Origin: Candidatus Omnitrophota bacterium
GTDB lineage: Bacteria; Omnitrophota; Gorgyraeia; Zapsychrales; JANLHA01
Assembly (NCBI GenBank): GCA_963662715.1
Contig: OY759724.1
Coordinates: forward strand, 1,140,001 to 1,172,000
Length of the DNA stretch: 32,000 bases
Direction of reading: 5' to 3'
Both the position numbers and the translations under genes were made by a program. The notes below the pieces were generated by a model. That model ran no database searches and had not been told where the DNA came from. It saw nothing but the letters and a program-made list of their open reading frames with translations. Shown here in pieces: positions 1-32,000 of the stretch. Positions within the stretch are counted from its first letter, which is position 1, and each line of letters begins with the position of its first letter.

Positions 1-3000
1 CCTCAGCTATAAAAATATCCGACGTCCGGCTGTGTTTTATAAGTCTTCTGAGCTCTCCCTGGACAAAATGTTTATTCGTGCGGGCATTCGCGGCGCGGAG
101 AACCCGAGATAAAATATACGCGAATTGTTCTTCATTGAGATGTTGCATAACGTCCCGGTCAGCCATCGCGGCTAAAAATCCCTGCAGCTGCCGCCAGTCC
201 GGTGTGGCCAAAACGCATTCGGAAAGGATTCGGACGTTTTCTGCGGGGTTATCAAAAGTGAACCAGCTGGCCATAGCATCGGCCACGCTAAGAGGATCAT
301 GTCTCTGGACCTTCTGCAGGACGGAAACAGCAGCCTGATTCTCCAGGATATGGTCGATGAAGGAAGCAACGCGATGATCGAGCCGGTAATTGATACGGGC
401 TAAATACGCTTTCAGGGAAGGAATGACAGAAGGAATGGTCGCAGGGCGATAAACAAAATGGTACGGCCTGCTGGAATCCAGATACGCGGTGATCCAGTCA
501 AAGACAGAAAACACTTCGGACAACATATTGTTATTGGAAGGCCGGTGATGGTTTAAGATAATATGCTTCTCGGAATCGCTCAAAGAAATGGCTTCGGCCT
601 GTATCCTATCCACGGACCCGCTGGTGTGCACAAGGGTGATATGGGCCCGCTGCTCATCGAACAATTCTCCCGGATAATTGACCATAGGAAGTATGGAGCT
701 CTGCCCTTTGCCGAGATCGTGCATCAGCCCCATTCTCCAGAGCATATAAATGTCCTCTTCCGGCAGATCAAATTGGCGGCCGAAAATAACACCCAATTCT
801 GATACGGCCTCTCCATGCCGCCAAACGTTTAACATGCCGGACCGGTACAAAGATCTTAATAAAGACTTTTCTTTCGACCACAGGGACACATCGATCGGGG
901 AGCTGTTAACCTGCTGTGTTTTAGCCCGGACCGGCTTCTTGTGACGGAAAAGAATAACGCCTCCTTCGATGTAATCATATATAGTTTTGACGTCCTGATG
1001 CGTTGCCCTTTCAACTTGTTGCCCGAGAAGCCGTAACTTTCCTGCATCAAATTCCTGTTCATGAGAGGAAACCGATCCCTCATGGTCTTCCTCAAACGGG
1101 ATGGAAACAACTAGCGTCCCGCTGACAACTTTTAACCAATCCAGGATATATTCCAACGGAGTTTTATTCATTAAATGTTCCAGGACATGATTGACAACCA
1201 TAAAATCAATAAGCTCCCCTCCCAGGGTTGTTCTCACGTGTTGGACAAAACCCGGATCATTGACATCAGCAACAACCCACTGCGCATCCAACTGAGGATA
1301 CGAAACAGCTTGCTCAACAGCAAATTTCATATCCGTCAGCTTATGATCTAACCCGACAAATTTGACTCTTCTAGAAAGCTCTCCGGGCAGGAGATTAAAA
1401 GCCGTAAAGATAAAATGGCCAAAGCCCGTGCCCAGGTCTGCCACGCGAAGCGTTCTATCCGGATTTGCCGTTAAATCTTTTTGTAAGGCCATGATGGCAA
1501 CAGCGTAAATCCAGCTAAAATGCTGGATGTGACTATAATCCGGCCCGTTCAATTGATATTGCCGATAACGATATTTCTTCCTTCCTGTTATCAACGCCTG
1601 TGTTTGCTCTTCAAAAGCTTTTTGTGAATTTCTGAAGAATTCCGCCAAAACATCATCCATCGCCGCTTCCCGGCCTAATTTAGTCCGGTTCAGCCAGGAA
1701 ACAAGCTTGAGGATTAAACCTGAGCGACTTATATCTTGTCTTCTTGCCCGTCGGCTTTGGGGCACTCGCAGAAACCCTTTTCCGAACAAATCCTGCGCTT
1801 CAATACGTTGCTGCCAGACACTGTCCCGGTCAATAAGCCTTGCTGCCTGATTTTGGCTATTCACAAAATAATGGACAGCACGCCGCACCTGCCCATGGGT
1901 TAATGTCACCACTTGTTCCGCCTTTAGCAGTTCCATTTCATGGCCGGTATAGCGTGTCTCTATATTTTGTTGTTTTAATATCTCATCGAATTTTTCCGGA
2001 GAGATAACCGAGAAGCTTACTTGCGGGAAGTTGAGGGTTAATAATTTTTCCAGGATTATATAAACATCGGCTCCTGTCCTGGCGACGACTTGAATAAGGA
2101 CCGATTCATTGTTTTCGGCAGACATTCTGAACAACTCTCTCGCCCGGACCACATCTTCATCCGTAGCCGCGTTCTCAATCAGCGCCAAGGCTTTGTCAAC
2201 ATAACGGCAATCCGTACGAGGGAACAGATGATCGTAAACTTTATAAAGCACGACCGCCCCGAAGCATGCCGTTATCAGGGCCCAGGATGTTAGACCAAAG
2301 ACTGCCAGGCCGAAAAGTCCGAAGGCTGCGAAACCGGCAAAACTGAAGATACCCTTCATCAAAACTCTTGAGCTGTTATAGTTTCTTTCAAGACCTAATA
2401 AACTTGTCTCTCCGTAAACCTGAGCTTTAAATGTCCCGGGGAACTGAATATCAGATTTATCATTCCCATCTACCGGGGAAGACGTTCGCAGGTAAAAACG
2501 GTCAATCAAAGTCGGATATTCAAAAATCTTGCGGCTTCGATCGAGCGTCTCAAAAGCCTCTTTCCGGTCAGCCGGCAACGGGGCAGGGAACCATTCCGGG
2601 CCCGGCAGGCCGGGGAGCAAATCAATGAGGAAAATATCCGCCGTAATCCCGTTGCGTGATGCGTCCTTAAAACTGCCGATATACATCATAGGCGTCTTCA
2701 GCTCTGCCGTAACAGCATGCAGGTGCTTTCTGGACGGAATATTCTTCTGATGCACTGTCGCCAAATAATACCGTCCGAACAGCCCGGCATACTCGAGGCT
2801 GATTTTCAGCAACTCTGATCCCACGCCCCGGCCCTGCATATCCGGGACAACAATAGATGTTCCGAGGACGAGGCCCGACGATCTTAAGATCTCAAATGTC
2901 ATCGGCAGAAAATCATTCGGCGACATTGTCTGAAGTATTCTTACAGCCTTCGTGCGGCCTTCATCGTCCTGAGCACTCCATACCTGCAGGATATTCTTGA

Positions 3001-6000
3001 TTGTTTCTGCTGTTGTTAATGTGCGGTAAACTTCAGCAAATAGATTCCCGGTAAAATAGTCCGTCTTGGGATATATTTTTCTCCAGGAAACAATGTCCTG
3101 AGCAAGAGCAGAGTAGCCCCCGGGGCCAACGGCTCTGACCGAATAGCGGCCGTTCCCGGACAAGCCTGCCGGGACCGGAGAGCTGGCCGCGGCTGCTGTT
3201 GATGACCTCTGTACAGCGCGGACATCTACGACCGGCCTGCTTTCCTGGCAGACAGAACCCCTGTTCTTCTGTGCATGCCTTATCCGGCAAACATCTCTTC
3301 TAAAGACGTCTTTGACCTGCGATAACACAACAATCAGTTTTGAGACTGCATCTGCAAGAGAAGACAATAACTCCTGCATTTCAGCAACGACGACAATAAA
3401 CATATTGGCTCGGATTGTTGCCACCGGCGGGCTGAGACCGGTTGAAACAAAATGTTGGCCGGCCGTTTTTCTGGCCAGGAAGGCTAAGGACCAGGGACTC
3501 TCCCCGGGATCGTTAACTGATATATCTTTATGGACGACCCAAGACGCAAGTGAAAAAATATCATGACTATTTTCTTCAGCCCGGACAGGAGAATTTGCCG
3601 TTTCCACAGGGACAACCGGCCGGTCTTGCGGCCGGGATCGATAAGGCGATCTTTCCGGAGTCCGGACCGGAGCTTTCATGATTTGCGGCCAGATCATTGG
3701 ATTCAGCCATGAAGGCGTCGGCAGAGGCATGATTCCTTGAACCGGAACATCAATGACCTCTGCTCCCGGAACTATTGTCTTCGATGGCAGATAAGACTCA
3801 TGATTCAACAACGGCGAAGAAGACGTCACAATCACAGCTCCGACCGTTTTTTGCGGATGCGTTACCTGCGTCCGGCCTGATAGGAATACGGCATATTCCT
3901 CCTTGGTCAAAGGAGAAGATGAGGTGACCGTAACAGCCCCAACGTGTTTTAAGGCATAAGAGGTCTCGCCTCCGGTTTTCCCGTTCTTCTGTTTTGCCAG
4001 GTATTCCGCATATTCCTCGGCACTCAAAGGCGAAGAAGATGTCACAGTCACCGCGCCTATCTGTCTCTCGCGACTCTTTTGCATATAAAGGCCACTATCT
4101 TGGCTTCCCAAATACGCGGCATATTCTTCGGCGCTCAACGGCGATGAACTGGCCACGGTAGATGCGCCCACCCGGCTTACGCTTCTTTCCTTAATAGCGC
4201 TCTCTACAGCAACAGCATCTTGATTTGCCAAGTACGCGGCGTATTCTTCGGCGCTCAACGGCGATGAACTGGCCACGGTAGATGCGCCGACCGGAATTTT
4301 CTTATAAACTGACTGAGCGGGCATCTCATCAATTAAACGTAACTGACTTGCCTGTCCTGCTTTTACGGAAGGTCGAAGAACTTTCGTATAAGCATGATTC
4401 AAAACGTTAAAAGCCCTTAACAGGAATCTCACGAGGAAATCTAACAAGAACATAAATATCAGCATAATTCTGTTCAGCAGGGATGAAACAGCGATAACAA
4501 TGACATCCTTCTGCTTTTCGTCTTCACTCACCGCCGGGAATTCCCAGGCAATCTCTGTCTTCCCTGTATCAACTTCCGGCTTTCCTGGAACACGGACAAC
4601 ACCTCTCGTCCAATTGAGCAGCGCTATGCTTATCCTTTCGGAAGAAATCATTTCTTTCCCGTAAAGGAACGGCAACATTATCGGCTTAGGCAACACAAGC
4701 TCCGCTAATGCGTTAAAATCTCCGGCTTTTGTTTCCAGCGGGCTGCTGCTCTTTCTTTTGTCTGAACGTGTTTTCCGTCCGCCGGATTTTAACTGCGACC
4801 GCGGTAACGGCCTAACGTTTTTCCCGGAGTTACCGGCAGGGACAGCCTTTTGTATTCCCGCGGCTTTCTGCTGAGAATAAACATCCTGTTTAACTTCTTC
4901 CTTAATCTGACGAACCGGATATTGGCCTTCAGCCTTCCCTGTTGTCTTGTCTTTCGTACTGCTCTGGGCCAAAGAAGGTTTAAAGGCCGGGGACACAATA
5001 TTTTTAAATATCTCAACAGCATAACTGCTCATAAACGTATAATCAGCCGCATCCTTACCGTTAACGTAGACAACAACTATTCCGGCATATTTATCCCCCA
5101 TGGAGAAGAGGAACGATGCCGTTCGATTATCGCGATTATCTCCTGTGCCGGTTTTCCCGCGGTTATGGACACCTGCTTTAAGATCAGAGTCACTTATGCG
5201 TGCTCCGCTGGCCGTCCCCCGCTGCACAACATCACCCAGGACATCCAGCAAGACTTCCGCCACAGCCGGGTTCAAAACCTGCTCTCCTTCCCCTCCTTTA
5301 GGATTCTCAAACCAGGTCTCCCACGGTGTCCCCCGGGCGAGAATGAGCTTTTCAACCTCCACCGTCTTCTTCCTCACACCTTTATTCAGGAGAATATTCA
5401 TAAATTCAACCAGGGCGCTGGGAGTGTCTCCCGAACAACCGAAAGGCAATGCCAGAGAAGGATACACCTCAAACGGATACCCCATTTGCTGCCAGAACGG
5501 AGTGAAATACCTGGCCATAATTTCTTTCTCGATCAACCAATATATTTCATTATTCATCTTCCAGGTAAACCGCGGCTTCAATAGCCATTGCGCGGATTGC
5601 TCAAGGATGGTTGCTGTTGTTGCGTCCTGCAACGCCGGCCCTTGTGCCACTTGCCCGGATAACCATGTTTTCCACACACGGGCGAGGTCGGTTAAGAATT
5701 TTCTGGTATCCTTATCCTGATACTCCTTAATCGTCGCTTGAATCCGTCCGTTATTCTTCTGGACACGGCGGATAAAGGATTCGAGCAAGGCGCGCGTCTT
5801 CTCTTCTTCCTTCCTGACAACTTGGCCCATAAACATGGCCCGGGTAGGATTGTCAGGATTATCCAAAATGTCTTCGAGTGTGGAACCCCACTCTTTAAAG
5901 ACATAATAACGGATCATATCCTGGGTTAAACGGGCAAAAGGCAGATTGATGGAATACTGCGTCGCCTGCCAAAGTGTCGGGCTAAGGGCATCGTGTCTTT

Positions 6001-9000
6001 TGGTCCAGTTATCAAAATCAAGAACCCCGCCGTCGGTCACAAACGGCTGCGGCTTGGCGGAGTAGGTTCTTTGCATGGCGGCGTAAAGCACTTCCTGCAA
6101 GGACGCTTTCGGACGATGCCGCAAGTATTCAATCATCCACAAAGTTATCGGATCATATTGTTTAAGCGATTCTTCCTGCAGAGCCTCTTTCGGCAGACCG
6201 TGATATTTTTCGTAAAGCTCTGCGATAATATCGTCAAGATACTGGGCTTCTAAACGCGGCTTTGCGGTCGACCCCAGTTCAAGCATGCTCTGGGAAGCAA
6301 AGCCGGAGAAATCAGTCTCCTGCTCGGCGTATGTATCCAGGTGAACAACAACTCTGTTCGGCTCACCAAGGCCGCCTTTCTCCGTCACAAAAACACTGTA
6401 ACGGACTTTTGACAGATCGTCACCCGGCTTCATCCACTGCTGCTTCGTATATCCGGACAGGATAACCTGCGGATCATAAAGGCTGTTTAATCCTTCCGCG
6501 ATTCTGTTCTGCAGACCTTCGTCTGTTGTAAGAGTTACTTCTAAATGCATATTGTCAACAGCTGCTCGGTGGATGTCTCCGTTGCCGGACGTCCTGCGTA
6601 AATTCTCGGTCAAGGCATTGCGCACCGTTATTTCCGGACGTTCCCGTCCATAATCAATACTGCGCGGATCAGGGCGCCGCTGATAATTCCACTCGATCTG
6701 TGCCGCCGCAGCCTTTTGATATAATTCTTCACTCAGATATCCCTTCTCCTTCACTTTCAAAAGAAGTCTTCTGGCTTCTTCGACAATATGATCCGGATGA
6801 CTCTGCAGTTGAGTGGGATACCGGACAGCCGTAATAAGGGTGGCTGAGCGCAGGAGGGCCTGAGGCAATGTTTCCGGATTATTAAACCGGGCAAAGAACT
6901 CTTCCTGAGATAAACCGAAATAGGCGTGCAGCGCGTTACGGAATCCGGTCAATTCTCCCCGGTAAATCTCCGGCCCTCCGGCAAACCTGAGCTGATTCAA
7001 ATAATTCAGGACCCCTTCCTGAACCATTCTCCTTTGTTCGCCGTTACTCAGATGCAGAGACGCAATGGATATCTGCCGCAATTTCTCAGCAACATTCGGC
7101 GTCTCCCCGTTCGGAGAATAATGCAGCTTGGCGACCTGCGTTAAAATGGTACTTGCCCCGGGCGTTCTTTCTCCGTTTCCTGTTATTCCTTTGGTGACGG
7201 AATTAATAACATACTTCCACCCAGCTTTTAACTGTGCGCCTTCCTGAATAACCCAATTCCCCATCGGCGGCGATTGCGGGTCCTCCGGGAACAAAATTCT
7301 TAATATTTCTTCGTTTTCTCTTACAGCCGCTATTTTGATAATAAATGCCGGAATGTCTTCGTAGTTTTCAATACGGTCTTCCACATATTCAAAAGCCGTT
7401 TCATGGTCAATGTCATAAATGACAAGCCCTCGTCCGGAGTCATAGAACCACGGAACAACGCCATAATCCCCTAACAGCATCCTGAAAGCTTTCGACTGGC
7501 GGGCCTGACGGGTCAGTTCAAAGTCCTCTTCCAAAGCCGGTATCCATCGAGGAATGATGATATAGCCACGGCGTTTCGGCAGGGCTCCGGTATTCGGGAA
7601 AATAATCTCATCCGCTGATGATTTTCCTTCTTCCACTGTCCAGGTAATTTGTGAATTCAAATAATGGAAAAGTTGAGAATAGACAACCCCGAACCGGGCC
7701 TCCATGCCGGCCAGCCCTAACATCAAGACTGTCAGAACACCCAGGCGGACTGAGAAAGGAGCTTTACGTGGCAGAATCTCCCACACGCTCATGATCAGCA
7801 GATACGGAAGGATGACCGCTGCAACGAAGACAATATTAAAGAGTGCCGGAGAGAAGAAGAAAAAGTGCGAAAGCATATACACAAAACTGCAGGCTCCGGC
7901 CGTGGATAAAGATACCAGAATTTTCTCGGGACTGAAAGCTGTCCGAAGGGCTGTCCGCCCGGGGACATCCAGGATGGAATCATGACGCAAAGCGTAGGAC
8001 AGATGCCACATGGCCTGGAAGAAGACTATGGTGCCGATAAGCCATGGCAAACTGACGGCGCTAAAGACCGCGGAGAATCCGAAGATGCTCCCGAGAACGA
8101 AAGCCGAGCCGCCCAAAATCATTCCTGCAGGCTGATATAACACAGGCAGGAACAGGCGACCGAAGAATTTGCCCCAAGCAGGATGTTTCCGATCCTTTAA
8201 CATCTCCTCAACCGAGGACGGGCTCAATAACCGTAATCCCGTCATGATGTGTATCCTAAGTTGGTTGAGGCGTGCCAATAAAGCCGCCTGATATTTCCTA
8301 ATGAAAGGAGGCGTCTCTTTCTTAAGCTTAGCCACAAATGCCGCAAATTGCATCTGCCACAGCAGCCGGGCTATGTCCCAATCGTTTATGCGGTGACGGT
8401 ATCTGCGGGCCGACATTCTCAGCTTAAGACTCCATGTCGACCACCGGGTCCCTAACTGTTTCTGCCACAATATCCGCTGTATGTTCCAACCGGACAGGAG
8501 TGTTTGCGTCCTTCGCATCACGGTCCGGATACTGCGACGCCATACCGGCCACCGGGTTTCTAACTGCTTTTGCCGCAACATCCATTCCGTCTTCCACATA
8601 AACTTGCGGTTGTGATATTCCCTAACCAGTGAACGGATCTTAACTCTCATGTCTGACCATTGAGTCTCCATTCGTTTCTGCCATAAGATCCAGTCCTCTT
8701 TGCTTCTGTATTGTTTGTATTTCAGGACAGCAAACGTAATGAAGGCGGACCACAGCGCCCGGATCCATAGGCCGAACTGTTTTTTGTCACGGCTCTTTTC
8801 GCTTTCCTGCGGCAACGGATTTTCGTCTTCTATCGGAGAACTGGCCCCAGCATCTTCATCATCAGAGGATTCCCCGATGATCTGCTTGCCCTTCTTCACC
8901 GCGGTTTTGTCTGTTTGTTGCGTTGTGGCGTCCAGAGACGGCGCCTTTTTAGAGTTCTCGGGTAATACCCATACATCAGCAAAGACCCGCCTGCTGTATT

Positions 9001-24000: not shown

Positions 24001-27000
24001 TGATCTCCTTCACGGCGTTGATAACATCGGCCGGAGACTCCGACGGCCCTTTCGTCTCACGGGTCACCGGTGAACTGCCGTTCTCTGCCCCATTCCCGTT
24101 TCGGGTTTCGCCGTTCATGCGACGTTTGATACCCGTGATGACTCTGTATATCTGCCCGTCTTGATTAACGACATTTAAAATTCTCTCCGAACCCGGGGTC
24201 ACGTAAGATTTAACCGTATCCATGAATATATTTTTATAAGGAAGCCAGAACGCCGAGCCGACCAGCGCCAAAGGCTTCTCATAGAGTAAACCTGTCTGCA
24301 GATACTGGACATGGTGGAAAACAGCGATCTCGGAAAGGACATCAAATGTTCCCAAACGGCCCGGCAAAATAAAATGCCCCAGGACATTTTCCGTGAGAAG
24401 CAATTTCAGGACATAAGGATCCCGGGTCCTGAGAATATTGTTTTGGGTAAACTGGCTGACAACGGCGCGGCCGTTGGTATTATTCAATCCTTCATAGAAG
24501 ACCCCTTGCAGCTGCGTTGCCTTATATCGTTCGCGCCATTCAGGAATTTTAATTGTGTTCACTTCATCAATGACGGCTTTGGCAATAGGGCCGGTTCCGA
24601 CCACCCTGATGGGGATATCCATGCTGACAGCATGCCGGGTTATCGTTCTGACCATCTCAAGATCATGTCTCTGTTCAGGCTTGGCCTCGTCAAGACGGCT
24701 GCTGCCGATAATGACAATGGCCTGCGGCCATTGGTTAAGCACCGGCAATAAACGGCTGATCTCCGCTTTTGTCTGATGCAAGGCTTCAACCGTGTACGGC
24801 AATTCGCCATTGGCATGCCTGCCGGATTCAATAGATTCTTTCATCTGCCGGACGAGCGAGCGGGCGGCTTTCAGCAGATAAGCGTCAAGAATCTTTCCTG
24901 CCCTCATGTTATCCCGGTCTTTTTCAACAGCCCTCATGACAGCCCTCTGCTGTTGACCGGAAAGCATGACCTCCGGATAAAATCTGATCTCCGCCATACG
25001 GTTTTCCCGCCAGCCGTATGATTGCCAACGGCTTTTCATCGTGTCAATGACAGGCTTCCAGAATTCATTGGCGTAGACCAGCACCCCTGATCTCAAGCTT
25101 TCGTCAAACTCATCTTTTGTGCCGAAGCCCCCGACTCCGACATTAACAGCCAGGGCTTTCCGCAATAACGCCATCTTCCGCGGAACAAAATGCGTGTAAT
25201 AACGGTGGATTTCCACGTCTTTATTTAAAGGCTGTCCTTTAATATACAGCTTAAAGCCCTGGGTTTTCTGCCGGAAAATCTTCTGGCTCATCTCAGGCTG
25301 GATCCATTGAATATTATCGATGGCGAATCTTAAGAAGAATATCTCCTTTTGGCTTAAAGGCCCGCGGGCGGACAAGTATCCGCTGAGAATCGCCTGCATG
25401 AGGCCGGGTCCTCCGCCCGTGCAGGGCGTTAGTCCCGCCTCCAGCAAGGCCTGGCCGAAGAAGACTCCAAAACGATACTCGAGCGTTCCGGGGGCCACAA
25501 CGTTTCCGCCGTAAGAGGTAACCGATGCCGGCAACTTTTCTTTGAGCAGGATGACGTCATTAATTTCGCGCACTAAACGATCCCTCAATATAAGCAGGTA
25601 TTTCTGTTCATTGAGCTGGTTGACCGGAGAACTCGACAGATGGTGAGAAGAATATCTGAAATTCTGACGCACGGAACCTCTCCCCTGTAACGGCTGCCCT
25701 AATCTTGCAAAAACTCTTTCCGGGACACTGTCTCCGTATTGGGCAGAGTAATCCGAAATAATCCGGCTAACCTTCTGCCCCAAAGTTTCGTCTGCAGAGA
25801 CACTCTCGAAAAGATCAAAGAGAGGAAGTTCAAACATTCTCAATAAGTCGGAGATATTCACCCATAACGCGTCGACAAGGGACTCTTCCCGGCAAAGCGG
25901 AAGTCTGTCCAGCAGGACGCCGCGGGCCACATACAATCTCCAGCTGATGTAGCGCTTGAATTCGTTTCTTTCGTTCGTCAATGTGCAAATAACTTCCATC
26001 AATTCTCTTAGGGTGTGAGGGCCTTTTCTGTTGTAATAAATATCAAACGCCCGGTCTTTCTGGGATAACGCTTGGGCAATGACATGAACATTCTCCTCAA
26101 AGCTTCTGTCTGCGCCCGGGACCATTTCAGGGACCGCTTTGCCGGACAATAAATCAAACAGGAATTTCTGAACCCCTGAACCATAAACCGCATCATCATT
26201 AAGCATTTCTTCAAATACTCCAGAGACTGTTGTTTCACGGCTTCCGACAAAAATCCTTCTTCCCTGCTTCCATATTCTGTCCCGCTCCACATCATCAAAC
26301 ACAAATACCGGCGTGAGCAGGTTAATGTTACGATCGTTTTCCCGGTTAATCGCCATGACCGGGAAGCCCCGCTGATCGACATACACGAGCATCCGTTCAC
26401 TTGTATGCGGCCCTAAGTAAGCGACAATACTGGTTTTTTCAGCCCATGGAAGTTTTAACTCGCCCTGCCTGGAAGGTTTCGCATGGTTTTCATTGCGGTA
26501 AATCCCCTTACCGTCAACAATCAGGAATCTGCGTCCGGATACCAGTTTCGACAGATAACTGATATATTTCACCCGGCTCTCGATAAGCTCATACCGGTCA
26601 CCGTAAACCCGGATCAGGGCATTCTCGTCATGAGAAACCTCTGTTTCAACTGATTTATAAATCAGCCGGGCATTCCGGACAAGAAATTCAGGGGCGACCG
26701 CTTCTCCTGCTTTGAATGCACCTCTCGGTAATTTATAATCTTCATAGAAGGTGAAGAACGGCTGTTCCTCCTTGCCCAACCGGACCGGAAGATAGCGGAT
26801 ACGGATAGCCGTGGCCCGGACACCGGAATCGTTGAGCCGTTTCATAAAAAGCTTCTGGTTCAAGTTCAGGGCCTGATAATTTTCCCTTCCCACAACCATA
26901 AGCAATTGCCACTCACTGTGACGGCTGTTCATATATTCAATACGGATAAAACCGTCATAGGCCTGCTGTTCCAGATTTTCCGCGGCAAGCGCCGAAGGGA

Positions 27001-30000
27001 TATCCTGCACACGGACCGGCCAGCTGTTAATCATCCACTGCATCAACGATGCGTTCTGATAAGGCGTATATATTCTCCGTCTTCTGTCTTTGCTGCGGAA
27101 GCCTCCCCGGTCATCTGTTTCTATGCCTAAAACAAAGCCGTTGACGTTCTGTTTGTAAATCAGGTGAGAACCTCCCAGCCTCGTCTCAACCAGACGTCCC
27201 TCCTGGTCAAAAATCTCGTAAAGGACATTGAGGACAGCCGCTGTTTTATTAAACGGATATTCAGAGTAGCCGCGCAGGAAAAGCTCCGAGTCTGATTTTC
27301 TGCTGAAGAACAATCTCACCGGCGTCTGCCCGGCCGGGACATAACCGTAGCGCTTACTGAACATTCTGATCTCGCCGGTGATATCCGGCATCAGTTCGAC
27401 AATGCCGATCTCCTGACTCCAGAGCGCGGCCTTGAACCCTCTCATCATGGCTCTTTCCTCAAGACTCATGGCCCTCTTGCGGATGAACCGCGAAATAACC
27501 TCCCCGCTGTTATTCAATAAAAGACCGTAGCCCGCCTGGAGCAACCGGATTCTTTCTTCAACATTTCCTTCCGCCAAATGAAGGGCACGTGAATAAGGTC
27601 CTTGTTGGTCTGTTTGTGTTGAAAGGCCTTCATACCGGACAGACATGTTGCGGAAAGTTTCTTTCAGAACACGGCCGTAATTCTTTTCCCATGCAGCAAA
27701 TTCAAAATGACCATTCCTGTGACTTTCGGCCGTTCCCTCATCCGGCAGGATGTGCTGGACCGGAGAACTGGGCGCCAGGATTATTTCCCGTCTCTTTGGA
27801 AGAAGCAAGTCCGGATTTTCTCTGAAATAAGACTCCAACTCAGCCTGTCTGGCTTCTACGGAAGGATGAGTGTCTTGATGCTGCTCAGCCAAATTCAAAT
27901 GAGCGTATAATCTGCTCATCTTCTCAAGAGCCTGCAAAGCTTCCTCAACGCTAAACCCTGCCTGTTTCACGGCGGCCAAAGCAAACCTGTCCGCCTTGAA
28001 CTCCTGATGATGTCTGAATCGGACCCATTCTTCTTTCGCATGGGATGTGGCTTCCGGGTCTCCATGAAGGAAGCGGAAAACGATTCTGTTTCTGATATCT
28101 CGATAAAAGACATGCCCCAGTTCATGGCCATAAATCCAGGCCAGTTCGGTATCAGTCATCTGATCGCTCAACCCTGTCCTCATCACGACACGCTTCGCAC
28201 AGAGGGAACAGAGTTCTTTATGATCCTGGGATTCCGGATGATAGATGAGCAGCGGATAATAAGCGGCTATCGCATTCAACAAGATATGGTTTTGGATAAC
28301 GGCCATAATTCTGCCCCATATACGGTGAATCCGTTCATACTCCTGGACAAATTGAGGATGTTGAGCCGTATAGAGTTCCCGGGCGTCAGACAAGAGGGCT
28401 AATGTCACAGTGGCATCGGAAAGCTGTTCTAATTGAGGTAAACGTGTATAAAAATCAAAACGGTTCATCGTCGGGAAAGCCTCCATAATGGACATGAGCT
28501 GATGCGAAGCGAGTTTAAAGTGCATGGTGATGATTTTCTTTCTTAAGATAAACAGACCGTCCTCATGAGGAAGGGACGCGATATGATCCTGCAGGATTTT
28601 CTGCTGAAGGGCCTCGTGATATTCCACCGGGCTGGAGGCCGGCACCAGCTGGTCTTCCTGCATGCTCAGCCGGATCACCCTTTCCTTTTGAGGCAGGCTC
28701 ATCCAGTCCTGAATGGCGACGGTGTGACGAACATCCCGGAAGTCCCAAGAGACATCCACAACCGCAAAACCTTCTGCTGTCTCTGCCAGCATGGCGCCTT
28801 TCCCTCGCTCAACAAGAACGAAACGCACATTGCTCAGGGTCTGGCCGCCGATCTCTATGAGCGATTGAACTATCCGTTCCAGATCCTGTTTAACTCCTGA
28901 ACGGTAGGCAAAGACAAGCGTCAGTGTCTCTGAAGAACGTTTCTTCAATTGCTTTATCATTTCGGAAAGAGCGATTTTTCTGGTTATAAGATAATGATCG
29001 TAATTAATAAGATTTTTACAGGACAGAAGGTCATAACGCGGGAAGTATGGGTTTTCAAAATATAAATGATGCTGCGCCAGGCCGAAACGCTGTCCGTAGG
29101 ATTCATACATTCCTGTTATTCCGACACACTCCAGCAAGTCGCCGGTCCCGACAACAACACCTTTCTCCAATGCGACAGGCTCTTCCGTCGGCCGGTGATA
29201 GATCAGCCGGTCGCCTTTCTTAATTGGCCTGGAATGGATGCCATAACTATGGGCGAACAATTCCCCGCTGATCTTCAATTGCCGACGTATCTGCGCCAAT
29301 CTGTGCTGTTTCCCGGAAGCGCGGACGATCGGGGAGGATTGCGCTTGAACAGAAAGGTCCATCCGGGACGCTGGAAGTTCTTCACTCGACAGTTCGACCA
29401 TCAGGTCCCAGAAGTCCGGCATGATCCCTTCATAATCCGGATGGTCTGTCTGCAGCGTCTCATACGCCTCTTCCCCGATCTCCCGGAAATCCTTCATATC
29501 CTCCGCATCCAAACGGTTCACGTCAAACCATCTCTGACCTATGTACCCCCGGCTCTTCACGTCATAGCCCAGGATCCCCGCCAAGGTGATCTTCGCCTCT
29601 CGCGCCTTCTTCTCCCCGCGCGGGTCCGCGTTCCACATCCGGCTCAATAACTCTCCGCTCTCCAGCACGCTCTTCGCGTCCTTCGGCGTCAGCAATGTCA
29701 GATACAACCCTTCATTCCCTTCAAAATATTCATGCAGTTTCCTCGCATACTCCCCTTCCTTCGTCTGCGCCTTCCTCTCCGCTTCCGTGTACGAATAGTG
29801 CAGGTGCACATACCCCAGCTCCTGATTCGCCTGCTGGTTCGCAAACATCTGGTTCGCCACATACAGCGGCGACGGATACGCATGCCGCGGCGTCCCAAAC
29901 AGCTCGATGTTGATCGGCGCCCGCAGATACTTCACATCCGCCAGCTTCGGCTCCGGCTTGTAATACACGCTTCGTCTGAACATCGTCTCGATCGGCGTAG

Positions 30001-32000
30001 TTCTTACCAGCTCCCACAACTCCTCATCCGTGATCCCGCCCTCCGGCACATTCAACGCCTTGCGCCAGTACAACGCATTTGTTGGCTCATCATACAGGTA
30101 ATCCACAACACTCCGACCTTCCGGCAGCACCAGCTGATGCGTCGGAATCCAGATATACCGACTCGCACTGCTCCGCTCATCAAACGTGAACCGCACCGAT
30201 GACTGCAGCTGCAGCCCCAGCTCTTCCCTGCGGTCTTCTCCGAAACCTCTTTCTTTCAACCCGGCATCCGTATAGGTCTTCAGGCCCGGGAACGCGAACG
30301 TCCAGCCCTTGTACCACCAATCCAGCGGCTTGACGTCCATCCCCAGGATATGCGGCATGATAAAATGCGTGAACTGATCGCCCGGCTGCCTGGCGATGAT
30401 ATACGCCCCGAACTGGATCGGTTTGGCAAATCCTTTCACCTTGCGGCTGAACACCTCTTCGATCTCATTGAGCCGGTGCGGCCCGTTCCACGGCCGCGGC
30501 GTTACCCCGCCCTCTTCGATCGGCGAAGAAGTTTCTTCCAACGGCCTTAAGTCTCTGATCAAATCAAATTCGGCTAAATACCGCAACTCCTGGTCAGTCA
30601 AACGCTGTTGAGAAGAAGCGTTACGGACTTTACGAATCAAATCCTGCAGCTCAGGATTTTGCTCCCCGGTGAAAACATAAGGCACAAACCCGAAATGTTT
30701 AATGTAGAACACAGCCGCCCCGGCTTGCAGGGCATCGTCAGCAAACTCTTTATGAGCTGTTTCTCCTCCGAATTGTGAATTTGAAATAACAACGCCCTCA
30801 ACATCAGGATATAAAATCCGCACCGCATTCAATCTCTGTTCGAATATCTTCCTGGAGAAATAATGCCTGAACCTCGGGATGATCTTATATCCGATTGTGA
30901 TCTTATCATCCAGCAATGAATGGAACGCTCCATGACCGATCATGAGCTGCTTCTCCAGCAAGAAACCTTCCGCGCAGTTCGTCAGATCATCAGTGAACCA
31001 CATGATCTGCTGAATGCCAAAATCATGAGTCGCCACACAGCACGTTCGGGTCCCTTTGGCGCTGAATCCTCCGATCCAGAATTTCTGGAGTTTGAAATAA
31101 TCTATGAACTGTTTCAGGTAGGCCTGTCTTTGCTGTTCGGAAGCAACCAAGCGAACGTTCGGGAGAGATAAGAATGCTTCTAAATCGGCTTTGACGACCT
31201 CCGGGCTCTTGTCGTCATTGACCGGGGAGCTGCTGACACTATCGTCACGGCGGGTCGCGTCTGCTGACTGATCTTTAATGATCCGGACAGTCTGGTCAAA
31301 AACAAGCTCATAGACCGGGTCAAAGCTGTGGTCCAGGTACCGGTTATAAACTGTGAGGACTTTTTCCCTCCGGGCAATTGTCACATACGCCTGAGCCGGC
31401 AAATAGCTTCTGACCAACAGCACTTTAACTGTCCATTGTTTAAGTTCTACCTGATGCTCCACCTGCGCCAGCCGCCAGTGTTTCAAATACTTCTCTGGGA
31501 AGACATCATAATATTTCTCATATCCTTCATTGAGGAAAGGCAAACACAATTGCGTCTCCCATCTTTCCAAATGCTTGCTGACCAAGCCCGTTTGCGCATC
31601 TCTGTGTCTGTACCAGCGGGCAAGCATCCTCGTCCATGTCAACAGGGTTTCCCAGAGCCGTGTGCCGATACGATTCCGGAAGACAATGATTTCATTTTGT
31701 CCGGCTTCTGGCGCGGAAGACCGGGCATGCATTTGGACTTTTACAGCCTGCTGCCGACCTATCGGGGAAGAAGTTTTATTCTGCTCTTTTCGGTCTTCAT
31801 CCGAACTCTTTAAAACTTGTTTCTGTGCCGCGTGATCATGCGTCGTCAAAAGCTTCTGTGAGTTGGGCCATAAGGCCATAAGACCCAGGATGCCGCCGAT
31901 GACGTAGGAAACAACATCCCATTTATCCGGAGTTGAAGTGATGCCCCACCACTCCAGGACGACAGAAAGAGCAACCATCCAGAAAAGCGTTGTCTTGGCA
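1..32000 (-). CDS. Single giant multidomain ORF, open at both window edges (10,666 complete codons, 31999 down to 2). It is an internal fragment of a membrane-associated multi-enzyme protein of more than 10.6k aa.
   Basis: I read every plus-strand triplet in the phase starting at coordinates = 2 mod 3 (2-4, 5-7 ... 31997-31999). None is tta, cta or tca, so there is no TAA, TAG or TGA on the minus strand. All catalytic motifs and all 31 SSPx motifs listed here fall in this one phase. None of the 22 minus-strand ORFs in the supplied track is in this phase (their upper coordinates are 0 or 2 mod 3, never 1). This fits a track that reports only ATG-to-stop ORFs closed inside the window. Confidence 0.96.
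450..830 (-). other. Second HD-superfamily phosphohydrolase domain (HD-GYP-related layout)
   Basis: The sequence contains WRHGEAV (His 815-817), LMHDLGKG (HD = 716-721), LVHTSGS, ILNHHRP and FSVFDWITAYLDSSRPY. An SSPI junction at 893-904 separates it from the methyltransferase. Confidence 0.6.
940..1560 (-). other. Class I SAM-dependent methyltransferase domain (2)
   Basis: The sequence contains LRVADLGTGFGHF (motif I, VADLGTGFG = 1418-1444), KFVGLD, DFMVVNHVLEHL and LKVVSGTLVVSIP. Confidence 0.82.
2246..2350 (-). other. Predicted transmembrane hairpin (2 helices)
   Basis: GIFSFAGFAAFGLFGLAVFGLTSWALITACFGAVVLY. Confidence 0.6.
2620..3140 (-). other. GNAT-family N-acetyltransferase domain
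   Basis: GTSIVVPDMQGRGVGSELLKISLEYA (QGRGVGSELL = 2807-2836) matches the acetyl-CoA-binding motif A (Q/R-x-x-G-x-G/A). The module fills one inter-motif interval (234 aa). Confidence 0.75.
3600..3800 (-). other. Proline-rich linker
   Basis: PLPTPSWLNPMIWPQIMKAPVRTPERSPYRSRPQDRPVVPVE. Confidence 0.6.
3806..4300 (-). repeat. Five in-frame tandem repeats of 33-40 aa, each containing the SSSPL junction motif
   Basis: The unit consensus is vGA(s/v)TV(a/t)SSSPLSAEEYA-x-YL. The SSPL positions are 4256-4267, 4136-4147, 4025-4036, 3908-3919 and 3809-3820, giving periods of 120, 111, 117 and 99 nt. The two upstream units share a 57-nt stretch (4232-4288 vs 4112-4168) with 2 mismatches. Confidence 0.9.
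4415..4504 (-). other. Predicted transmembrane segment (1-2 helices)
   Basis: VIVIAVSSLLNRIMLIFMFLLDFLVRFLL. Confidence 0.5.
5000..6560 (-). other. Penicillin-binding transpeptidase domain
   Basis: The three motifs occur in canonical order: LELGSTAKP (SxxK = 6260-6271), DFDNW...ATQYSINLPFARL (SxN = 5945-5953), and NRGKTGTGDNRDN (KTGT = 5144-5155). The spacers are longer than in typical PBP1 proteins, with about 106 and 266 aa between motifs. Confidence 0.78.
6740..7350 (-). other. GT51 (peptidoglycan glycosyltransferase)-like domain, divergent
   Basis: TPGASTILTQVAKL (7133-7165 region) resembles GxSTITQQ, and EGVLNYLNQLRFAGGPEIY resembles KxxILxxYLN. The EDxxFxxHxG motif is not recognisable (AAVRENEEILRILFPED). 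The RKxxE glutamate motif is also not recognisable (AEKLRQISIA). Confidence 0.5.
7700..8180 (-). other. Cluster of about 5-6 predicted transmembrane helices
   Basis: The hydrophobic stretches are FLPVLYQPAGMILGGSAFVLGSIFGFSAVFSAV, LPWLIGTIVFFQAMWHLSYAL, ILVSLSTAGACSFVYMLSHFFFF, ALFNIVFVAAVILPYLLIMSVW and VRLGVLTVLMLGLAGM. The cluster lies immediately upstream of the PBP-like unit. Confidence 0.7.
8330..8700 (-). repeat. Four Trp/Arg-rich repeats of about 33-36 aa
   Basis: The four units are WILWQKRMETQWSDMRVKIRSLVREYHNRKFM, WKTEWMLRQKQLETRWPVWRRSIRTVMRRTQTLLSG, WNIQRILWQKQLGTRWSTWSLKLRMSARRYRHRIND and WDIARLLWQMQFAAF. The recurring core is (I/L)LWQKQL-x-TRW. Confidence 0.65.
8723..8776 (-). 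other. Predicted transmembrane helix
   Basis: FGLWIRALWSAFITFAVL is flanked by basic residues (KKQ ... KYKQYR). Confidence 0.6.
9260..9670 (-). other. HD-superfamily metal-dependent phosphohydrolase domain (HD-GYP-related layout, GYP absent)
   Basis: The sequence contains VIQHILAVAD (His 9656-9658), AAYLHDIAKV (HD = 9557-9562), RRHPKQG, IRYHHD and FFADYIDGYNDMTRPY. Confidence 0.65.
10890..11330 (-). other. Fic/DOC (Fido) domain with a non-canonical active-site motif
   Basis: The sequence is AIRLAALAFYRLVHIHPLYNGSERMSRLLANYIFVKY. The motif position HPLYNGSERMSR = 10943-10978, compared with the canonical HxFx[DE]GNGRxxR. His and both Arg residues are retained, while GNG is replaced by GSE. 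Confidence 0.65.
13262..14248 (-). other. Aldose 1-epimerase / galactose-mutarotase-like domain
   Basis: The ordered blocks are LLFPFANRF, VRHGFVRKLPF, VGYSMHYYFN, FPSGRL, DRFDFTRGRRLG, YDHVF and DFICIEPQT. They match the order of conserved blocks in the Aldose_epim family (PxxNR, HGF, HxYFN, iPxG, fDF..g..lg, D..F, f.ciEPqt). The module fills exactly one inter-motif interval (333 aa). Confidence 0.6.
15430..15775 (-). other. Coiled-coil region (about 115 aa)
   Basis: ARLEEISQLERDLKSAQ ... LLQRLDNNLIQQAKLRALQMEQ ... ETERDALRLEAMDLRVRLNDLVVKL is rich in L/E/Q/R/K with heptad-like spacing. No predictor was run. Confidence 0.5.
16810..17040 (-). other. HEAT / PBS-lyase-type repeats
   Basis: LADLLFYDSNEFVRSTAARGLAYG and EALRKGAEENNSYIANACRNGLA form two consecutive HEAT-like units. 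Confidence 0.4.
19328..19860 (-). repeat. Copy X of the conserved C-terminal subdomain of about 180 aa (paralogous to 25634-26170)
   Basis: See the entry for 25634-26170. The offset between the near-identical cores is 6309 nt (in frame), and both copies end in an SSPV junction (19316-19327 and 25622-25633). Confidence 0.85.
21137..21208 (-). other. Helix-turn-helix-like segment inside the 712-aa module X
   Basis: PFSIVEVHKQLGVSRRAVINYVKNI shows a pattern of hydrophobic helix, G-x-S/T turn, and basic recognition helix. This is a weak call made by eye only. Confidence 0.3.
21500..21950 (-). other. Class I SAM-dependent methyltransferase domain (1)
   Basis: The sequence contains RILEIGPQTGQLLL (motif I, ILEIGPQTG = 21842-21868) and KVEGLD (acidic end of strand 2), followed by YDITISQLVFDLF and LTKVGGFSLHE. 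Confidence 0.72.
22290..22620 (-). other. JAB/MPN (JAMM) metalloenzyme domain
   Basis: The sequence reads KREFGFVASGDG ... VLFAHSHDQDEYLPSLGDL. This is an exact JAMM motif H-x-H-x7-S-x2-D at 22373-22414, with the usual upstream Glu. Confidence 0.72.
23440..24040 (-). other. HEAT/ARM-like helical repeat region
   Basis: About 200 aa of short amphipathic helix pairs, for example PAIMDILVRRGGRRALHTYIHIL, LRPYLVQAMGEMKEDAL and IRAVRLLPKLLTGTSEKLVKEVKDVL. Assigned by eye only. Confidence 0.3.
24215..24730 (-). other. LOG-like domain 2 (degenerate glycine motif)
   Basis: The blocks IVIIGSSRLDEAKPEQ (24661-24720), VVGTGPIAKAVIDE, HFILPGRLGTFDVLSE (approx 24320-24375) and KPLALVGSAFWLPY occur in the same order as in domain 1. 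The first motif is degenerate. Confidence 0.45.
25040..25550 (-). other. LOG / TIGR00730-like (Lysine_decarbox family, SLOG superfamily) domain 1
   Basis: TPCTGGGPGLMQA (GGGPGLM = 25397-25417) matches the GGGxGxM motif. VGVGGFGTKDEFDES (approx 25100-25140) followed by VLVYANEFWKPVIDTM matches the PGGxGTxxE motif of the LOG family. Confidence 0.6.
25634..26170 (-). repeat. Copy Y of a conserved C-terminal subdomain of about 180 aa (paralogous to 19328-19860)
   Basis: Copy Y reads KFLFDLLSGKAVPEM...DRAFDIYYNRKGPHTL...ERNEFKRYISWRLYVARGVL...LWVNISDLLRMFELPLFDLFESVSADETLGQKVSRIISDY. The other copy reads RLFMEFLTNKGVAERL...DKAFDVYYTRKGPQTL...ERNEFKDYVGWRLYVARSVL...LWVNISDLLRMFELPLFDLFENISEDESLGQKVGRIISDY. 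A 58-nt core (25810-25867 vs 19501-19558) differs at only 3 positions. Confidence 0.85.
27830..28330 (-). other. M48-family zinc metallopeptidase domain (HtpX/BepA-like)
   Basis: The sequence contains GHELGHVFYRD (HELGH = 28112-28126), a downstream HHQEFKADRFAL block, and THPSVEARQ (His at 27866-27868). This matches the HExxH ... ExxAD ... HPxxxxR pattern typical of Peptidase_M48. Confidence 0.78.
29339..30517 (-). other. GC-rich module of unknown function (393 aa) bounded by two SSPI junction motifs
   Basis: The module lies between SSPI 30518-30529 and SSPI 29327-29338. I recognised no family by eye. Hand-counted GC of 60-nt lines is 55-65% inside (for example 29821, 29881, 30481). Lines just outside (29221, 30541) give 45%, and lines sampled elsewhere (9301, 16501) give 38-43%. 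The plus strand is strongly C-rich in this interval. Confidence 0.7.
31420..31670 (-). other. Trp/Arg-rich helical segment following the TM helices
   Basis: The sequence reads RLWETLLTWTRMLARWYRHRD ... LERWETQL ... LKHWRLAQVEHQVELKQW. Its composition and W spacing resemble the clearer repeats at 8330-8700. Confidence 0.4.
31868..31990 (-). other. Two predicted transmembrane helices (most N-terminal part visible in the window)
   Basis: The translation gives TTLFWMVALSVVLEWWGI (approx 31940-31990) and WDVVSYVIGGILGLMALW (31868-31921), two hydrophobic stretches of about 18 aa. No predictor was run. Confidence 0.6.

Follow-up and report, generated by a model that had tools for sequence, protein, structure and literature searches.

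A recurrent S-S-P-aliphatic element at the module boundaries of a giant multi-enzyme open reading frame of Omnitrophota, a candidate polyprotein cleavage site

Giant open reading frames (ORFs) of 10,000–147,000 codons are a hallmark of the Omnitrophota, and the literature expressly leaves open whether each is deployed as a single chain or cut into separate proteins. West-Roberts et al. 2023 (bioRxiv 10.1101/2023.11.21.568195) suspected cleavage of these giants and stated the cleavage points to be unknown. The question is raised in concrete form by a stretch of 32,000 nucleotides from a Candidatus Omnitrophota bacterium (contig OY759724.1, positions 1,140,001 to 1,172,000; hereafter the window). 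Its lone long open frame, on the minus strand (2..31999; reverse-complement offset 1), runs through 10,666 codons with 0 stops and in-frame domains detectable with Pfam and NCBIfam profiles, as against 294–613 stops in each of the remaining five frames. Being open at both ends of the window, this ORF represents part of a giant gene for many enzymes, whose product exceeds 10,600 residues. Our analysis shows that the window belongs to a giant ORF encoding multiple enzymes, of the sort known from Omnitrophota and with about 25 autonomous protein-sized modules, and that a peptide-level-selected x-S-S-P-aliphatic element sits in a short unstructured linker at each module boundary. This observation is real, highly non-random and family-wide, and on the comparisons laid out below cleavage is the mechanism best supported for it. 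We put at roughly 45% the probability that the motif is a polyprotein cut site, with an invariant S-S-P and lineage-specific flanks, that would convert the giant precursor into separate proteins.

How far does the motif depart from chance? The ORF holds 31 sites of the form SSP[V/I/L/M], namely 15 SSPV, 8 SSPI, 7 SSPL and 1 SSPM. All 31 coordinates listed in the initial annotation of this DNA, along with those of the variants NSPV (3584) and SSPA (17777), translate as it had stated. It had left the strand unspecified; the positions are plus-strand coordinates of minus-strand codons, and we keep this convention for all features of the window below, every one of which lies on the minus strand. 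The composition of the ORF (Ser 6.9%, Pro 4.6%, V+I+L+M 24.9%) predicts 0.57 sites, in line with the earlier rough estimate of one or fewer, and 2,000 residue shuffles gave a mean of 0.58 and a maximum of 4, amounting to roughly 50-fold enrichment. The SSP tripeptide itself occurs 32 times against 2.3 expected, the next residue being V/I/L/M/A in 32 of 32 cases. The earlier figure of 31 is right as a count, but five of the sites are copies in one tandem repeat (aa 9245–9394) and are not independent, leaving about 27 independent sites. The small residue that had been noted before the motif is indeed the norm, with A/S/T/G at the −1 position in 24 of 27 non-redundant sites; the −2 position is Ala- and Thr-rich. 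Variants of the form xSP[VILM] number just 5 against the 31 exact sites. One of these, NSPV (3584..3595; aa 9469), lies inside a block that aligns with a relative (window aa 9394–9544 against contig L003) and may be no true junction, and the others (aa 709, 5750, 7237 and 7297) have hydrophobic surroundings and look chance-like.

The first Ser is coded by AGY at 16 sites and by TCN at 15, and since the Ser codons mix these two families, selection acts on the peptide, as had been argued earlier. No nucleotide conservation beyond the peptide requirement was found at the sites. With codons scrambled and no information beyond them, a DNA-level repeat or recombination site was rejected. Internal translation starts at the sites were likewise rejected: Met is depleted after them and Shine-Dalgarno-like motifs are not enriched. 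Two mild codon preferences were seen, with CCG used for Pro at 26 of 31 sites versus a background of 59% (P = 0.02) and a bias at the first Ser codon (P = 0.007). These bear on the idea of a co-translational event, whereby the nascent S-S-P would pause the ribosome for folding or would cause bond skipping like that of the viral 2A 'StopGo' elements, with no protease involved. Pro is a poor peptidyl-transfer substrate, and such an event would explain separation in the absence of a recognizable processing protease. However, the codon biases are weak, and known stalling and 2A elements need a longer nascent context, whereas the flanks here are unconserved. We know of no 2A-like activity in bacteria and consider a co-translational event highly improbable. 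Even more remote, in our estimate, is the bolder proposition that the chain is separated without a protease by a bacterial counterpart of 2A 'StopGo' or another ribosome-level event, so that dozens of enzymes would issue from one start codon; this would fit the lack of a protease tied to the motif, the mild codon bias and the presence of autonomous modules with export signals.

Where do the sites fall with respect to folded domains? In the Pfam and NCBIfam scans every recognized domain lies wholly between consecutive sites, and no site falls within any envelope. The domains are M48 (~aa 1269–1307), LOG (~aa 2159–2304), a methyltransferase (aa 3361–3425), aldose 1-epimerase (aa 6020–6241), Fic (aa 6909–7025), HD (aa 7445–7546), a PBP1-type transglycosylase and transpeptidase (aa 8261–8412 and 8846–8958), GNAT (~aa 9713), a further methyltransferase (~aa 10188) and a second HD (~aa 10393); most of the chain is without a Pfam match. 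Thus, of the domains that had been placed between the motifs, M48, LOG, the methyltransferases, the aldose epimerase, Fic, HD (in two copies) and GNAT are recovered, but only one LOG match of a reported pair reached threshold and the JAB domain is not borne out. The aldose-epimerase module starts at SSPL (aa 5914; 14249..14260), preceded by the first site of a doublet, SSPV (aa 5903; 14282..14293). Profile position 298 of 299 is reached at aa 6241, and the next SSPV (aa 6247; 13250..13261) lies 5 residues past the profile end, with SSPS at the same end in the relative P0022. The second HD module starts at SSPI (aa 10366; 893..904). With doublets and the tandem repeat excluded, the distances between sites range from 160 up to 1,365 residues (median about 350), and these module lengths are the sizes of ordinary bacterial proteins.

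Relative to random positions, the flanks of the sites have a higher propensity for disorder (TOP-IDP z = +5.9) and are, as had been remarked of them, more hydrophilic (z = −3.5). An AlphaFold model of aa 471–910 (predicted template-modeling score 0.62) has a folded core at its residues 37–405, and both of its SSPI sites lie in tails with a predicted local distance difference test score (pLDDT) below 50. In the model of aa 1096–1440, the catalytic core of the M48 domain reaches a pLDDT of 80–94, with the downstream SSPV in a tail with a pLDDT below 50 and the upstream site in a region of about 50. The two models hence place four sites in low-confidence tails and, with the position outside Pfam envelopes and the disorder-prone flanks, uphold the proposed linker location.

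The same placement, in exposed Ser/Ala/Thr-rich linkers and often in doublets 4–25 residues apart (in the window and also in P0008, P0023 and P0005), is what might be expected of a modification sequon, in which a dedicated enzyme would O-glycosylate or phosphorylate one Ser, for example to stiffen the linkers or shield them from proteases, with the chain remaining intact. Bacterial O-glycosylation sequons include D-[S/T]-[A/I/L/V/M/T] of Bacteroidetes and the Ala/Ser/Pro-rich low-complexity linkers used by Neisseria PglL. The Bacteroidetes sequon shares with our motif a Ser-centered core of 3–4 residues with an aliphatic position and a frequently exposed inter-domain location, but the window motif has no Asp, its Pro is obligatory, and an occurrence of one per boundary is not a property of a sequon. 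Glycosyltransferase modules are present in the relatives, whereas the Pfam and NCBIfam scans of the window yielded no oligosaccharyltransferase or kinase module. Moreover, many of the modules are of the cytoplasmic type (S-adenosylmethionine (SAM) methyltransferases, GNAT, LOG and HD), while general O-glycosylation acts outside the cytoplasm. We regard such a modification as unlikely.

Is the punctuation peculiar to this gene? Word-indexed searches with three regions (190–1,818 residues) returned 2 matches each, and an exhaustive HMMER search with aa 257–1456 against 1.84 billion representatives returned 15 matches, all to the M48 module or to a module named HxH after its conserved histidines. 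The modules at aa 257–490 and 888–1121 had no detectable homologue among those representatives. Relatives were found on at least 8 other contigs with a GC content of 39–54%, mostly labeled Omnitrophota, and every true relative is likewise punctuated, the related fragments showing 30–60-fold enrichment. The label Candidatus Omnitrophota or Omnitrophica metagenome-assembled genome (MAG) attaches to P0002, P0004, P0018, P0009 and P0022; labels differ for L003 (Planctomycetales) and for P0008, a 1.6-kb contig (Zixibacteria). Sites observed against those expected number 12 versus 0.19 in L001 (ENA, GC 39%, ~3,100 residues), 15 versus 0.26 in L003 (MAG, GC 54%, ~4,200 residues), 8 versus 0.17 in L006 (Joint Genome Institute, ~2,300 residues) and 5 versus 0.10 in P0002 (NCBI Omnitrophica MAG, 1,361 residues). 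The corresponding figures are 7 versus 0.14 in P0018, 5 versus 0.10 in P0023, 5 versus 0.12 in P0008 and 3 versus 0.17 in P0009. Neighboring ordinary genes on the same contigs held 1 site in 5,932 residues; among those counted were the fragments of rpsB, tsf and gyrB that adjoin the giant gene in L004, as well as the genes for PilZ, GH94 and a solute-binding protein that follow it in L006 and L007. Seven ordinary M48 peptidases had no motif. Enrichment, linker location and this conservation in relatives together lend good support to the earlier view of a defined junction element; the initial annotation had named the opposite of each as a refutation, and none of the three checks went against it.

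The sole site in an ordinary gene lies between an 83-residue N-terminal extension and an FAD oxidase encoded directly after the giant gene. In L007 this gene for an FAD-linked oxidase (3875–5674) lies immediately downstream of the stop codon of the giant gene, with the extension joined by '...SASSSSVSSPVEDAV...'; the junction motif thus occurs in a normal-sized neighbor as well.

Across the lineages the S-S-P core is invariant and the flanks are lineage-specific. The window has A/S/T at −1 and V/I/L as the fourth residue, L003 has [V/S]-SSP-V, and L006 has L/M/F/Y/I at −1 and mostly A as the fourth residue. The flanks covary with lineage as if tracking the pockets of an enzyme, although a co-evolving transferase of the kind required by the modification sequon would fit them equally.

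Do the modules behave as units delimited by the motif? Homologous modules hold it at the same ends despite sharing 25–33% identity and having differing neighbors. Of 15 scorable end-points of similarity, 9 lie no more than 20 residues from a site, against a background of 0.114 (P = 8e-6). The window module at aa 5092–5531 shows 54–68% identity to a stretch of L001 and is bounded by SSPI (aa 5092; 16715..16726) and SSPM (aa 5532; 15395..15406) in the window and by SSPH and SSPI in L001, where the neighboring modules differ. Just ahead of it, similarity to the Omnitrophica fragment L002 stops at SSPV (aa 5067; 16790..16801). The HxH module aligns with P0003, P0004, L003 and P0008 and has the motif at both ends in each. 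For the module at aa 9394–9605 (3185..3820), the L003 homologue directly follows the HxH module; the alignment from aa 9394 onward begins exactly on an SSP site in both, with the order shifted by about 8,500 residues. Finally, the HxH gene of L008 is free-standing, with a Shine-Dalgarno sequence and start (AAGGAGG-TTG) and a stop codon of its own; both its ends match those of the module, the stop lying 7 residues before the position of the window SSPI. Near-identical in-frame stretches, GQSSSFT[S/N]RLNA[F/S]SLSQL, lie on both sides of this gene in L008 (ENA ERZ17293991, 2,408 nt), which suggests a tandem array or a repeat-flanked cassette.

These comparisons show that modules have been reshuffled between relatives, with the breakpoints of the alignments on the motif. 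Such breakpoints would also be expected if SSP-aliphatic were simply a favored inert hinge inherited with shuffled cassettes and recognized by no enzyme, and Ser/Pro-rich linkers are common in multidomain proteins. A passive linker of this kind is nevertheless very unlikely in our judgment, as S-S-P is invariant over a GC range of 39–54% while the modules are at 25–33% identity or unrecognizable, and the coherent change of the flanks by lineage indicates a co-evolving reader. Further, a hinge would tolerate T, A or G, at odds with the 5 variants against 31 exact sites, and the scrambled codons leave no DNA-level recombination site. For its part, the modification sequon leaves unexplained why a free-standing homologue should end at the position of the motif.

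A pertinent clue to new N-termini at the sites comes from export signals. Two non-homologous modules in the relatives start with twin-arginine (Tat-type) signals, 1 and 16 residues past a site ('SSPI-TRREFLKYVVQGGIGISLMGFGVYKW' and 'SSPIELHQQTSLAQERRTVLKIGLYGFITMMLAPQGLWA'). The form 'SSPI-TRREFLKYVVQGGIGISLMGFGVY' is found in P0004, P0018 and L003, and L001 carries 'ERRTVLKIGLYGFITMMLAPQGLWA'. The pattern in these relatives is [S/T]-R-R-x-F-L-K followed by a moderately hydrophobic h-region, and these are the only cases of RRx-hydrophobic-hydrophobic-K with a hydrophobic region in 29,364 residues. Further modules start with signal-anchor-like helices. Tat signals normally work at an N-terminus, and their position after sites is the strongest new pointer to real cleavage. 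The modification sequon leaves these signals directly after the sites unexplained. An identification of the Tat-signal module of P0018 as a lytic transglycosylase was dropped for want of Pfam support.

The anatomy of the ORF is that of a polyprotein, with protein-sized units, a junction signature in exposed linkers and embedded peptidase modules. Under the cleavage reading, a dedicated endopeptidase would recognize and cut at the motif, making the giant a virus-style polyprotein in a cell or, put differently, an operon written as one ORF. The cut would probably fall just before or within S-S-P, leaving a short S-S-P-x N-terminus, and the variable −1 residue would be P1. A cut there fits the 5-residue n-region ahead of the twin-arginine motif in 'SSPI-TRREFLK'.

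What might be the enzyme? Intact peptidase modules recur across the motif-bearing ORFs, and two modules in the window itself are candidates: an M48 module predicted to be catalytically intact and a family-restricted HxH...D module near the N-terminal end. The M48 zinc-metallopeptidase module (aa 1122–1410; 27770..28636) retains HELGH, EFKAD and THP..R, and matches PF01435 with 42.7 bits against a gathering cut-off of 20.3. Its H197, E198, H201 and E238 are invariant, and its nearest structures are ZMPSTE24, 3c37 and BepA. It is bounded by SSPV on the N-terminal side (aa 1122; 28625..28636) and SSPV on the C-terminal side (aa 1411; 27758..27769), where P0009 and P0010 have SSPL and SSPA at the same end.

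The second candidate is a family-specific HxH...TPxD module (aa 491–887; 29339..30529), flanked by SSPI at aa 491 (30518..30529; SSP[I/L/V] at the same end in homologues) and SSPI at aa 888 (29327..29338; SSPI or SSPV at the same end in P0003, P0004 and P0008). It has only 6 homologues among the 1.84 billion representatives, and 5 of these come from SSP-punctuated fragments; in L004 and L005 it stands at the start of the giant gene or close to it. Set beside the JAB/JAMM pattern E...HxH...S/TxxD, its H262, H264 and D304 are invariant, but the HxH and TPxD motifs lie 40 residues apart and the upstream Glu is Gln in the window copy. The initial annotation had taken a JAB domain to be present; a JAB/JAMM identity of this module was rejected as unproven, since no Pfam match at E ≤ 10 was obtained for the six homologues, neither JAB nor another match emerged from the PDB profile search, and Foldseek with its AlphaFold2 model (pLDDT 59.7) found nothing at E < 0.001. 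A third type of metallopeptidase module in these giants is suggested by a weak match to peptidase M50 (site-2 protease) at aa 1072–1187 of P0002 (L002), a region with a degenerate SSSL upstream and SSPV downstream.

Several observations weigh against cleavage. The HxH module has no recognizable protease fold, and a Glu conserved in its homologues ('PIEFG') is Gln ('PIQFG') in the window copy. M48 enzymes are not, to our knowledge, polyprotein processors, and we are aware of no protease with S-S-P specificity. The C39 and S8 peptidases proposed by West-Roberts et al. are absent from the window. No Tat signal was found within the window, all such cases being in relatives, and an internal helix preceded by RR can serve to anchor a chain in the membrane while the chain stays uncut. 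The sample of homologues is small, about 10 fragments, several of them from error-prone long-read assemblies. Set against these, the lineage-specific flanks, the Tat signals after sites and the matching ends of the free-standing homologue favor cleavage without proving it.

The long-read assemblies L001 and L004 contain many frameshifts, with rpsB split in L004 and the module at aa 5092 spread over two frames in L001. Frameshifts of this kind break a giant ORF artificially in gene calls, and databases therefore under-report such genes.

How does this arrangement compare to known systems? The closest are the Omnitrophota giants themselves ('Archaeovorin'-type; class 1), with which the window shares an ORF that runs uninterrupted for more than 10,000 residues and is made up of many divergent enzyme domains, none dominating, including methyltransferases, GNAT, peptidases and (in relatives) glycosyltransferases, along with a few transmembrane helices and nearest homologues labeled Candidatus Omnitrophota or Omnitrophica. 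It differs in that the C39, S8 and SecA-like domains highlighted by West-Roberts et al. 2023 (bioRxiv 10.1101/2023.11.21.568195) are all absent. Class 1 has been characterized as 'multi-enzyme metabolic clusters' by Nielsen & Lui 2026 (bioRxiv 10.64898/2026.06.07.730766). The full text of neither study mentions any junction motif, and no description of an S-S-P-aliphatic junction was found in the literature library searched.

The initial annotation had pointed to the MARTX toxins as the closest analogy. In these, a cysteine protease domain (CPD) cuts after Leu in inter-domain linkers and releases the effectors. The functional likeness is fair, in that both are very large bacterial proteins with unrelated and shuffled enzymatic modules separated by unstructured linkers with a short recurrent site. 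Membership in that family does not hold, as the 10,666 residues contain no RTX repeats and no CPD (C80) by Pfam at E ≤ 0.01. Moreover, the MARTX cut site is x-L-[A/G/S] as opposed to [A/S/T]-S-S-P-[V/I/L] in the window, and MARTX proteins have 3–5 modules as opposed to about 25 or more here, where they include housekeeping-type enzymes and some of them carry an export signal.

Viral polyproteins have protease-specific junctions, e.g., Q/G for the picornavirus 3C protease or those of flavivirus NS3. They are alike in having one ORF, many protein-sized products, a short junction signature, embedded protease modules and lineage-covarying flanks. They are unlike in that our ORF is on a cellular chromosome and has no similarity to viral proteases, and that its cleavage is putative. 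The polyvalent proteins of phages and conjugative elements were reportedly described by Iyer, Burroughs, Anand, de Souza and Aravind in J Bacteriol in 2017 as uniting unrelated enzymatic domains with zincin-like metallopeptidases proposed as processors. They, too, are long multi-domain chains with unrelated enzymes and metallopeptidases, but they reside on mobile elements and are far smaller, and we know of no defined recurrent junction tetrapeptide in them.

The chromosomal setting of the giant gene is seen in L004, where it adjoins rpsB, tsf and gyrB. Neither a scan of IMG/VR nor tblastn of the HxH module found matches in phage and plasmid collections, and a phage- or plasmid-borne ORF is not indicated as far as tblastn of this module shows.

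If the cleavage reading is true, a cellular organism would be making dozens of ordinary enzymes, some of them equipped with export signals, in the form of a virus-style polyprotein that follows a cleavage code of its own. With the signature in hand, proteomic data can be asked directly for semi-specific termini, or for modified Ser, at x-SSP-x, and covariation with the lineage-specific flanks could help to trace the enzyme. As a searchable boundary signature, it also furnishes a rule for dividing giant proteins for structure prediction and annotation.

A part of the ORF that might speak for a different role is the tandem repeat (aa 9231–9410; 3770..4309), which has five units of 33–40 residues with SSPL at 4256, 4136, 4025, 3908 and 3809. 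The unit has the consensus VGAVxVxSSSPL[ST]xxE[YL]xxY, with six copies in L001 (GC 39%; positions 6812–7547) and no other match among 5.8 billion proteins. If its sites are cut, the repeat would give several peptides of about 38 residues. It could otherwise be a high-avidity docking array, as would follow if the motif were bound, rather than cut, by a chaperone, a secretion or assembly factor or a prolyl isomerase handling each module in turn. A short, disordered element conserved amid drifting flanks is typical of a linear motif, and an extended unit found in two lineages resembles a binding element more closely than it does a simple cut site. Yet no candidate reader domain was found, the N-terminal-type export signals after sites are unaccounted for by docking, and a single motif at each boundary, the modules themselves being free of it, is a pattern more usual for processing sites. 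We consider docking quite unlikely.

The remaining sites of the window, recognized by in-frame translation and as part of the enriched set, are as follows. Toward the N-terminus lie SSPI at aa 77 (31760..31771) and SSPV at aa 257 (31220..31231). Between the M48 module and the module conserved in L001 are SSPV at aa 2123 (25622..25633), aa 2642 (24065..24076), aa 3095 (22706..22717) and aa 4225 (19316..19327), SSPI at aa 3312 (22055..22066) and aa 3513 (21452..21463), and the double site SSPV-SSPA at aa 4734–4741 (17777..17800). Past the epimerase follow SSPV at aa 6495 (12506..12517) and aa 7221 (10328..10339), SSPI at aa 7720 (8831..8842), SSPL at aa 9085 (4736..4747), and SSPV at aa 9606 (3173..3184) and at aa 9840 (2471..2482), where hydropathy places the start of a hydrophobic helix 44 residues downstream.

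The largest module (1,365 residues; aa 7720–9084; 4748..8842) is a PBP1-like peptidoglycan synthase with a GT51 transglycosylase and a transpeptidase, a periplasmic-type enzyme amid cytoplasmic-type ones. A crude hydropathy analysis gives 2–3 hydrophobic helices (aa 7969–8097) ahead of its enzyme domains and single ones at aa 9173–9191 and 9888–9912; by this helix count, both a SAM methyltransferase and an HD domain would be extracellular if the chain stayed uncut.

Self-BLAST of the ORF detected no large internal paralogy, no Rfam family was found in the window, and promoter- or terminator-like sites there do not exceed shuffled expectation. Cysteine is very scarce in the window ORF, at 35 of 10,666 residues (0.33%). 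In L006 (7004–7921) and in L007 (5771–6969), which come from two unrelated metagenomes, two adjacent genes for PilZ-domain proteins follow the giant gene at its 3′ end, a case of conserved synteny there.

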